Position numbers and translations under genes: made by a program. DNA of 64,000 nucleotides, taken from Chrysomallon squamiferum (taxonomy: Eukaryota; Animalia; Mollusca). The notes beneath the pieces are model-generated. The model worked only from the letters and a program-made list of their open reading frames with translations. It was not told where the DNA came from and did no database searches. Below are positions 119 to 5,958 of the stretch, one piece after another (position 1 is the first letter of the stretch; each line of letters starts with the position of its first letter). The stretch is taken from the NCBI GenBank assembly GCA_012295275.1, contig CM022675.1:6448001-6512000 (forward strand), read 5' to 3'.

Positions 119-3100
119 ATGGCCCAAGCTGCAGGTATTCAGGAAGAACTTGTGAGCAAGGCCAAACAGAGCCGTAGTGAAAAAAAAGCCAGAAAGGCTA
201 TGTCAAAACTTGGTAAGTTTTCAAAACGTTTTTGAAGGAATACATTAATGATTATGAAATGTTTGTATGTGTGAAAATTTAACTAATACTAAAGGGAAGA
301 TTGTGAAAAGGATAAAACATCAGCAGTTAGCCTTTGTGTAGTGCGTTTTTATGGTATTATGACAGTTTATTATTAATAAAAAAAAAAAAAAAAAACCCAA
401 TAAAGTATTTGTTTTTGTAATGTTATAAAGAAATACATTGAACTAATGGGAAAAACATTTCTAATTAATTTGTTCTTTTTCACTTTGGTACATTCACATA
501 GTTTTGTGTTTACATAAGCCTGTTATAAAAGATTTTGTAATTGATAATTTATTGGATTTATATCATCTGGATACTTTGTATTGTCATGTTTGAAAATAAC
601 AATTAAGTAAATAAGAAACCAGTGCTTGCAATGATGACAATTTTTCCCCGTCTTATCGACAAATGCAGATAAGTTGTGTGTGTCAAGCCAATCTGTCTGA
701 TGCAAGTACTGTATTATATTCAGAATAACATAGATGCTTTTATAAACATAAAATATGATGTATTAAACTAAAAATTCTTTAAAGATCTCACTAGAATTAT
801 TCTGATAAATATTTCTTAAGTAGAGAATGTCAAAAATATAATCATATTTCTGCTGTTAATATATTTCCAGAAGCAGCAGCAAAGGTTATATGAAAACCCT
901 ATGATTTAGACCTAGTCTGAGTGTTAAAATGTTTTAAATATCCAGTTTTCAGTATTCATATATTTAGACACATTGGTGGTTTTCATACATGTTTACTTAA
1001 GACACTTACTATATACATGGCAGTTGTAATATAATATTACAGTGTAACATGAAATGCATTTGTTCAAATATCTATTTGACTTGAGTTGTTTTTATGTTTA
1101 ATTTCAGGACTGAAGCCTGTCACTGGAGTAACGAGAGTGACTATTAGAAAATCAAAAAATATTCTGTTCGTAATTAACAGACCAGATGTATTCAAGAGTC
1201 CAGCATCTGATACATACATTGTTTTTGGTGAAGCCAAGGTATTATTTAATTGACAATATATCACATCAGGCATCAGTATTATGAAAGTTTCCACTGTTTT
1301 TAATAGTCTGTGCCCTTTGGTATTAAAATTTTAGCTCTTTGTACTTAATATTTCAATGTTTTGGTGGGTTTGCATATTATTAAATTCAGGGGTTTATTTA
1401 AATGGTGTTTTGGATATAAAATTATCTTTTTTTTTTAAATATGTAAACTCATTAAAGTTGAGCGTGGTTTAGAAAATGTCTTTAATGCCTGGGTGACATG
1501 TAAACACTTATGTAATACTTGTTATGATGATAGTTTTTCCCCGTCTTATCGACATGTGCAGAAAAACAAATTGCATTTCAAGCCATTTTATCTGATGCAA
1601 GTATACATATATTATTATTAAACCATGTCTTTTCTCATCTTTTTTTCTTTGATGTAGTCATTTTAAATTATCTTGTCCAATGTATAACAAATTTTATCAA
1701 ATTAGTAATGGTTAAAAACTATATTGTGCTTGTATGTATGTATGTAAAAAAGAGATTATTATTTATTATTTTTGCTAGTGTACCTGTGGTATGAATAGTA
1801 AAAAAAAAAAAATATACTGCATGCATCTAAGTTATCCAATATATCATTACTGATAATATGACAGTAAACTGTTATCATTAAATAAAAAAGTTAATGTTAA
1901 TATTTTAATGCTAGTCTTGTAAATTAATTTTCTTGATTTCTTTTTCTTCTCTTTTAACACTTTTAATCATTTATATGCTAAGGAAAAAATTAGGCATTAA
2001 TATGTTTTTAAAATAATTTTCAGTATTAAGAAACAGGTAAAGCATTGGTGGTTTTTTTTGTGGTTTTTTTTGCCTTGTTGCTCATTCAAGTGACATTTTA
2101 TTTGTGTAGGATAACTAACAGCTTGTATTTGGTGAGGGAAAATAACTTGCAATGATGAAGGTTTTTCCCCGACTTATCGACAAATGACGATAAAAATTTG
2201 TTTTTAAGCCAATTTTTCTGATGCAAGCATAATTCTTCAACAGACTTCCATTTCTAAAAGAAACCTGAACACTCAATGCTCTAAATTTCGTTTTCAAGTA
2301 GATTTTCTTTTAAAGGTTTTTATTGATTTTGATACCATTATAAATTCTTACTGTGACAGCTAGCACTGAATCAGTAAAAATTCAGTACTTCTAAGGCTAT
2401 AAATTTGATTGTCTGTAAAATTTATATAGCTACCTTTAAGACAGCTGATACATTAATAGATACCAGAAATGTTGTTAATGTAAATTGTAGATAGTCTTGT
2501 TGAATGAAATCTTTAAACATGTAATGTTGGGAATACCAGTGTGGTTAGTCATTAAGTTTAGATCATTCTCAATCTCAGCAGAATTAAGCAGGTTTTTTCA
2601 CGCTTGGAATGATGATATTTTTTCCCCGTCTTATTGACAACTGGAGATAAAATTTGTCTTAAGCCAAATTATTCTGATACAGGCATGAAAGAATTCTTTA
2701 AAATTCTCTTTTCGTTATCTCACTAGTATTCTGTTTAACACAAAATATTGGAAGTAATTTTGTTTTATAGACCCATTTAAAAAAACATTAATGTTCATTT
2801 CTTGCATTTTATATTGATTTTCTGTCACATAAGGACTGGTCTGAAAATCTAAGCGTTAGGTAAGAAATGTACTGACAACAAATCTTTTCCATAATGATTT
2901 ATTGCCTTTGATACAGATTTGCTGTGACAGTTATTTTTTTTATTTTTCAAATTATGTTAAGTATGAATGTATGGCAGAGAAATATTGATTCTACTTGCAA
3001 TGATGACATTTTTTCCCCGTCTTATCGATAAATGCAGATAAGACTTTGTGTTCAAGCCAATGTGTCTGATGCAAGTTTGATTATATATTCTGCTGTGATA

Positions 3101-5958: not shown

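Follow-up and report, generated by a model that had tools for sequence, protein, structure and literature searches.

The window analysed here is a 64,000-nt stretch of Chrysomallon squamiferum DNA (CM022675.1:6,448,001–6,512,000, + strand; GC 29%) that starts within the NACA gene. Three consecutive introns of this gene carry nine copies (c1–c9) of a box C/D small nucleolar RNA (snoRNA), all in sense orientation. Gene structure was taken from translation, Pfam matches and RNA contigs assembled from four runs of one study; contigs of this kind drop rare forms and cannot show RNAs of 80–90 nt. A loose contig end before position 116 points to a further upstream exon beyond the window. The first coding exon inside it (119..212; RNA contigs and translation) is followed by intron A (213..1107, 895 nt), which holds c1. 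An exon encoding the NAC domain (1108..1238; RNA contigs and Pfam PF01849, E 4e-18) precedes intron B (1239..3470, 2232 nt) with four copies, c2–c5. The next exon (3471..3605; translation and RNA contigs) precedes intron C (3606..5520, 1915 nt), which contains c6–c9. An exon with a HYPK-type UBA domain (5521..5643; RNA contigs and Pfam PF19026, E 5e-12), a 300-nt intron (5644..5943) and the final coding exon, ending at the stop codon (5944..5958; translation and RNA contigs), follow on the same + strand. All these introns have GT-AG ends, and the joints across A and B were found in 4/4 RNA runs, those across C and the 300-nt intron in 3/4. The 1, 4 and 4 distribution of copies proposed in an earlier sequence-only reading of this DNA was thereby upheld, with the intron ends confirmed by the RNA contigs.

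The mRNA contigs skip introns B and C whole, each across four copies, so that two or more snoRNAs lie in a single spliced intron. Constitutive non-coding exons between copies, which the sequence-only reading had named as evidence that would count against it, are absent from these mRNA contigs. No joint with splice-site ends leading to an internal exon was present among the contigs of the four runs, in which rare forms are dropped. Joints between T-rich stretches (side 20–24 nt, no splice ends) were discarded as low-complexity matches. Intron cover by the RNA contigs is patchy, at a depth of about 2–7, and may stem from pre-mRNA or DNA. A fifth run (X5), whose library kind is not on record, covers the introns evenly. 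Its contigs at 641–2634, 2611–3508 and 3528–4148 hold the array through c1–c6, with allelic differences; c8–c9 are covered by X5 but absent from the long contigs listed. An assembly artefact is unlikely, since the nine copies are only 71–96% identical to one another, the spacers are unique and the X5 contigs run through c1–c6.

Each copy was compared with the SNORD12 covariance model of Rfam (RF00581). In intron A, c1 (620..711; C box 631, D box ending at 700) has an 11-bp terminal stem and scores 42.8 bits. Intron B holds c2 (1515..1604; C box 1524, 8-bp stem, 36.1 bits), the inner copies c3 (2143..2230; C box 2152, 6-bp stem, 2/40 conserved columns differing, 34.1 bits) and c4 (2600..2686; C box 2609, interrupted stem, 39.5 bits), and c5 (2991..3078; C box 3000, 7-bp stem, 35.8 bits). 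Intron C begins with c6 (3674..3762; C box 3683), which looks degenerate: its guide is broken, 5/40 conserved columns differ and it scores 26 bits (E 0.062). It is followed by the inner copies c7 (4235..4323; C box 4244, 9-bp guide pairing, 9-bp stem, 41 bits) and c8 (4760..4851; C box 4771, 11-bp stem, 0 conserved-column changes, 44.2 bits), and by c9 (5196..5299; C box 5213, predicted 17-bp stem, fold z −5.6, 44.5 bits). All lie on the + strand. The nine C-to-D units, sense to NACA, were found at the C boxes from which they had been called, and measure 69–72 nt.

The model matched 9/9 copies over its full length (26–44.5 bits, E 4.9e-7 to 0.062), bearing out the SNORD12-family assignment made earlier from motifs. 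The 43-bit gathering score was passed by 2/9 copies, c8 and c9, with the remaining seven at 26–42.8 bits. Homologues from other organisms likewise score 33–43 bits, and divergence from the Rfam model is the likely reason for scores below the threshold. The array almost certainly belongs to the SNORD12 family. The snR190 model had no listed match in the Rfam scan, where the tool suppresses overlapping matches of the same clan. Elsewhere in the 64 kb no Rfam match reached gathering; only microsatellite-type miRNA matches and a weak SCARNA7 match were seen, the latter in repeat-rich sequence at 19306–19441 (28.4 bits, E 0.007), well short of the gathering score and likely due to chance. A search for further copies over both strands of the 64 kb, allowing ≤5 mismatches to a 20-nt core, returned only one 5-mismatch fragment at 4410. 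This fragment (4410–4445), in the c7–c8 spacer, resembles the snoRNA core (5 mismatches in 20) and is either a decayed copy or a chance likeness.

A common layout runs through the copies: C box, U-tract/CCCCG guide, D' box CUUA, the conserved motif UCGACA, a degenerate C' box, a variable linker, the short element AAGCCA and the D box. C box RUGAUGA, D box CUGA and a terminal stem at the ends are present in 9/9, the stem of c4 being interrupted. The D' box reads CUUA in all nine, while the same position is CUGA in 5/11 aligned homologues. The C' box is of the UGCAGA/UGACGA type and is altered in c6. Terminal stems measure 5–15 bp by simple pairing, and that of c9 reaches 17 bp by folding. The pair adjoining the C box is C-G in 4/9 copies, U-G in 3/9, U-A in 1/9 and unpaired in 1/9. 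Over 11 stem pairs in nine copies, 82.8% of cells pair and 6/11 pairs change on both sides, in line with the covariation suggested earlier; slid controls gave 24–42%, although the stem shuffle counts are not probabilities, as the copies are related.

To assess selection, we used 11 homologues from outside the window to define which columns are conserved. In the inner copies c3, c4, c7 and c8, mismatches to the consensus fall at 5/160 conserved against 33/120 other positions (Fisher p 2.5e-9); in the six non-last copies the counts are 13/240 and 50/180. Conserved and variable blocks interleave within copies, a pattern not expected from gene conversion alone. Some of the deviating bases are polymorphic: the single conserved-column change of c4, at 2635, is the consensus base in X2 and X3 RNA contigs, and position 4269 of c7 is the consensus base in X5. 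Among 10 spacer and flank segments compared, only the c6–c7 and c7–c8 spacers are alike (78–90% blocks). The spacers around c2–c5 have diverged past alignment, while the inner copies there retain their motifs. The earlier view that selection acts on the RNA while the spacers are mostly unconserved therefore holds, inner copies included, apart from the one pair of similar spacers. Judging from these substitution patterns, the inner copies seem to be in use, or to have been until recently. The array may have arisen by tandem duplication in cis, given that one spacer pair is still alike and that c6–c9 group in a weakly supported tree; C/D families are described as spreading by cis recombination inside the host (PMC8178906).

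One further observation may bear on the history of the array. X2 and X3 RNA contigs join position 2711 back to 2177, marking off a 535-nt segment with 3-nt microhomology and no splice-site ends. Three sites distinguish the two junction contigs, of which that from X3 is 563 nt long, about the segment plus a 30-nt overlap, as expected of a closed assembly loop. X5 contigs cross both ends (2177 and 2711) unbranched, among the joints listed. Our preferred explanation is that other individuals carry a fifth intact copy through tandem duplication, which fits the array spacing; alternatively, the joint may reflect a template switch or an RNA that was circular or ligated.

The likely target of the guide was sought on ribosomal RNA (rRNA). 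As reference we used a full 3494-nt eukaryote large-subunit (LSU) rRNA from a genome contig (L268), that is, the rRNA of another eukaryote. The guide adjoining D' pairs over 10–12 nt with one common LSU site in 7/9 copies; in c7 the pairing is 9 bp and in c6 it is absent. Pairing ends at the D' box or one base before it. Two points weaken the target call: the pattern used to fetch rRNA had itself been designed on the guide, so that presence of the motif is not independent, and other duplexes of 11–14 bp including G-U pairs were found for each copy, at sites the copies do not share. The weight of the call lies on the common site adjoining D' together with the family match. Under the five-nucleotide rule for methylation targets (PMC10557570), the target would be the G opposite the fifth base before the D' box, the third G of a GGGG run, which each intact copy would direct for 2'-O-methylation. 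By homology, the predicted target should be the position numbered G3878 in human, G2483 in fission yeast and G2395 in budding yeast (10.1101/2024.10.03.615557); the same source states that budding-yeast snR190 does not methylate its own site.

A second antisense element may lie near the D box, where AAGCC is kept in 8/9 copies. Pairing of 7–9 bp with neighbouring rRNA is the top duplex for c1, c2, c4 and c5, and pairing of 6–8 bp is the top duplex for 10/11 homologues, although duplexes so short arise by chance. This short element, ending 7–8 nt before the D box, likely aids rRNA folding and not methylation. A viral contig set was also scanned for the rRNA target; its 120 stretches contained none that was rRNA-like in the surrounding sequence. 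L268 and six further loci (L220, L221, L229, L243, L250 and L271) are eukaryote LSU rRNA within prokaryote genome records (7/10 loci scanned), likely through contamination.

Homologues were collected in a metagenome scan that returned 92 stretches in 89 loci, and a profile search found one in 34/89. At 10/34 of these loci SNORD12 lies among HSP90 exons, for the most part singly in its intron. Five HSP90 loci have at least two copies, and in four of them a coding exon separates successive copies. At L028:385–1272 two SNORD12 copies stand 715 nt apart with no mapped HSP90 exon between them and one GTRAG motif 109 nt before the second. At L012:4088–4174 a degenerate SNORD12 copy sits upstream of the first HSP90 coding exon. 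Two related loci, L030:688–4448 and L016:1432–5848, contain a dense host with SNORD52, snoR1, snoR38, SNORD12 and three U14 copies, plus SNORD15 in L030 only. There the U14 units recur with a period of about 290 nt, every unit containing a donor site, and GTRAG is found in 14/14 spacers, in 11/14 of them 44–94 nt before the next snoRNA. We regard these two loci as the usual one-per-intron, non-coding multi-snoRNA host. SNORD12 is directly upstream of U14 in both, the same order as for snR190 and snR107 in yeasts. A search for a NACA exon in the 209 fetched loci at E 0.01 gave none; these short metagenome and viral contigs say little on host conservation.

End-trimming stops at the outermost assembled snoRNA–protein particles (snoRNPs), and selected inner copies therefore need some further step. 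Trimming of a debranched intron that ends at the outer snoRNPs has been described as yielding a sno-lncRNA, a long RNA capped by two snoRNAs (PMC11028025). We tentatively favour a route in which the whole intron is excised and the spacers are then cut, with exonuclease trimming freeing the four copies. Each long intron would leave the mRNA precursor whole, as one excised intron carrying four copies. Cuts would fall in unstructured, U-rich spacers (38–43% U, with U runs of 5–14) and be followed by ordinary exonuclease trimming. The copies lie 238–1875 nt from the 3' splice site over all nine, and at such distances terminal stems of 6–17 bp would help assembly; stems of this type are reported to make up for a remote branch point (PMC10234308). 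Candidates for the internal cut include an EndoU-like nuclease that acts on single strands with a preference for U; a splicing-independent endonucleolytic route and XendoU have both been described (PMC10557570).

Several points weigh against this route. U-richness is expected anyway in a genome of 29% GC. No cut or mature RNA was seen in the assembled contigs, which drop rare forms and short RNAs. Two snoRNAs in one mammalian intron persist as a sno-lncRNA (PMC11028025), and in the account of PMC10557570 the human XendoU homologue is not shown to cut intronic snoRNAs. Two YAG/GTRAG sites in the introns exceed chance and are easier to reconcile with stepwise splicing, which would also suit the position of the weakest copies (c6, c3 and c4) beside the two spacers that have no GTRAG.

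The sequence-only reading had pointed to the RNase III-type cleavage (Rnt1 in yeast) that separates polycistronic clusters in plants and yeast. Such a cut is not supported here by folding of the six in-intron spacers, none of which has a long hairpin. Their folds are no more stable than those of shuffled sequences (z −0.46 to +1.34, 20 shuffles each), their longest helix is 10–14 bp and their inverted repeats are matches between A/T runs. RNase III is accordingly disfavoured.

Stepwise splicing, in which some transcripts remove the introns piecewise through recursive sites or rare, decay-triggering non-coding exons, is a rather doubtful alternative to whole-intron excision and cutting. It would give most copies their own lariat and largely keep the one-per-lariat rule. 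Motif search located a YAG/GTRAG site in the last spacer of intron B (2857..2864, +; GT at 2860), a candidate donor or recursive site for which candidate acceptors of a hidden exon end at 2726 or 2833. Its counterpart in the last intron-C spacer is a recursive-site-like candidate, a pyrimidine tract (0.7) with CAG/GTGAG (4913..4920, +; GT at 4916). Two YAG/GTRAG sites in 2451 nt compare with 0.04–0.05 expected and with none in 1829 nt of other NACA intron, for a pattern chosen after looking. An X1 allele carries 4918 G to A and leaves the consensus intact, though 9 bases differ in 257 nt. The candidate cassette exons (133, 26, 13 and 113 nt) are all frame-shifting, and GTRAG is present in 4/6 spacers.

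Broader measures of splice-site content do not favour stepwise splicing. The general donor score is not enriched in the spacers (6 sites at ≥7/9 against 4.4–4.7 expected, P about 0.3), spacers with a donor-score site number 5/6 against 3.2 expected (P 0.13), and GTRAG alone occurs in 4 spacers against 2.3 expected (P 0.2). The motif stands 44–94 nt before the next snoRNA in 1/6 spacers here against 11/14 in L030 and L016. Even if all GTRAG sites were used, c3–c4 and c6–c7 would share a lariat. The four RNA runs contained no stepwise joint, a weak objection as contigs alone were available.

A second alternative requires no internal cut. Copies far from the branch point would assemble only occasionally and exonucleases would destroy those left unassembled; one assembled copy would give one guide, two or more would give a sno-lncRNA, and extra copies would raise the yield. 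Such chance assembly calls only on known machinery (debranching, XRN and exosome trimming) and would explain selection on inner copies, the long stems and the 238–1875 nt distances; sno-lncRNAs are themselves known (PMC11028025). We nevertheless consider it unlikely. Most expressed human C/D snoRNAs are separated from the branch point by more than 100 nt (PMC10234308), so that distance need not mean poor assembly, and the 11–17 bp stems of c1, c8 and c9 suggest efficient assembly. Nor did any sno-lncRNA end turn up among the contigs, a kind of data ill suited to showing one.

It is improbable that only the outer or last copies mature, the rest being young decaying duplicates, or serving only as the two ends and internal knots of a stable sno-lncRNA of 1.6 kb. 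The degeneration of c6, the polymorphic non-consensus bases of c4 and c7, the 7/9 copies below the Rfam gathering score and the possibility that the array is still changing, as the 2711 to 2177 joint may indicate, all point that way. Against idle inner copies, however, the c2–c5 spacers are unalignable while the inner copies among them keep their motifs, the inner copy c8 is unchanged in conserved columns, and genuine homologues elsewhere also score 33–43 bits. Spacer cutting, stepwise splicing, chance assembly and idle copies can coexist. A one-per-intron non-coding host of the UHG/GAS5 type was rejected, because the mRNA contigs skip whole introns and 2/6 spacers are without GTRAG where 14/14 have it in the L030 and L016 controls.

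A wider proposal builds on these routes: that this lineage releases C/D guides from four-copy introns by recursive splicing at YAG/GTRAG or by a dedicated spacer nuclease, and that the array is expanding with a five-copy intron segregating. We hold it as speculative and unlikely. No animal route of polycistronic C/D snoRNA release by recursive splicing or a spacer nuclease was found described in the literature searched.

Other genes were also evident in the window. Two profilin reading frames, 30445–30843 and 36969–37574 (+), each span the complete Pfam domain without a change of frame; of 25 candidates compared with the first, a single relative reached E 1e-10 or better, at 68%. A THAP-domain frame lies at 7802–8221, a C2H2 zinc-finger gene at 15009–16145, a proteasome subunit exon at 48031–48390 and a NOG1 exon at 59259–59537. 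The THAP and C2H2 domains, taken with the intron structure and the similarity of homologues, suggest that the DNA is from an invertebrate.

The guide itself is familiar. The SNORD12/SNORD106 family (RF00581) includes human SNORD12, SNORD12B and SNORD12C, budding-yeast snR190 and fission-yeast snR107, and the array agrees with it in the full-model match of 9/9 copies. It also shares the C and D boxes, the U-tract/CCCC guide before D', a 6-nt motif between D' and C' and a second element before D (10.1101/2024.10.03.615557). It differs in its NACA host, in having nine copies with four per intron, and in the D' box CUUA of all nine. Human SNORD12 copies occupy consecutive ZFAS1 introns (10.1101/2024.10.03.615557), so the contrast between hosts drawn by the sequence-only reading stands. 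In chicken, four SNORD12 copies lie in introns 1–4 of one expressed sequence tag (PMC2653536). Neither SNORD12 in NACA nor four C/D isoforms per intron of an animal coding gene was found reported in the literature searched, the coverage of which is limited. SNORD12 and its changes of host between ZFAS1, HSP90, a non-coding multi-snoRNA gene and NACA are ordinary snoRNA biology.

Animal C/D snoRNAs are mostly found one per intron because their release depends on debranching and end-trimming. The earlier statement of this rule as a contrast with plants and yeast was overstated: fly H/ACA clusters, 3/66 fly Me28S C/D entries and mammalian sno-lncRNAs depart from it, and PMC11028025 itself describes animals as following the rule 'predominantly'. 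In flies, H/ACA guides are found in intronic clusters, with C/D guides said to be one per intron (PMC3089462), and fly intronic guide clusters are also treated in PMC13228274. Among the fly Me28S C/D rows listed in the supplement of PMC11028025, 62/66 are mono-intronic, 3 intronic_cluster and 1 intergenic; the paralogue pair Me28S-U2134a/b in RpL13A is labelled a C/D intronic cluster there. In all, at least 108 C/D rows from animals are labelled in this way; the 30 of them listed come from macaque and mouse, many in imprinted arrays (PMC11028025).

Each known system shares some features with the array. Drosophila intronic clusters place several guides, often isoforms, in one coding-gene intron (PMC3089462, PMC13228274); they are described as H/ACA, whereas the NACA array consists of C/D isoforms, with four in each of two successive introns. 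Mammalian sno-lncRNAs likewise have more than one C/D snoRNA per excised intron (PMC11028025), but they yield one long RNA with a snoRNA at either end, while here there are four canonical guides, the inner ones apparently selected. Yeast Rnt1 polycistrons and plant clusters, intronic ones being cited for rice, also carry several snoRNAs per precursor, snR190 being cut from a precursor common with U14 (10.1101/2024.10.03.615557); in the present case long spacer hairpins are lacking and the precursor is a coding-gene intron. The many copy-specific bases would allow cutting, stepwise splicing and chance assembly to be distinguished by sequencing. Selection on the inner copies suggests that they are used, and that a release step is needed, the nature of which would bear on the processing of fly intronic clusters as well. 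The array is real and selected: a familiar guide RNA, arranged in a way that has precedents in kind but is unusual for animal C/D snoRNAs, and on a larger scale than in the fly examples we found.

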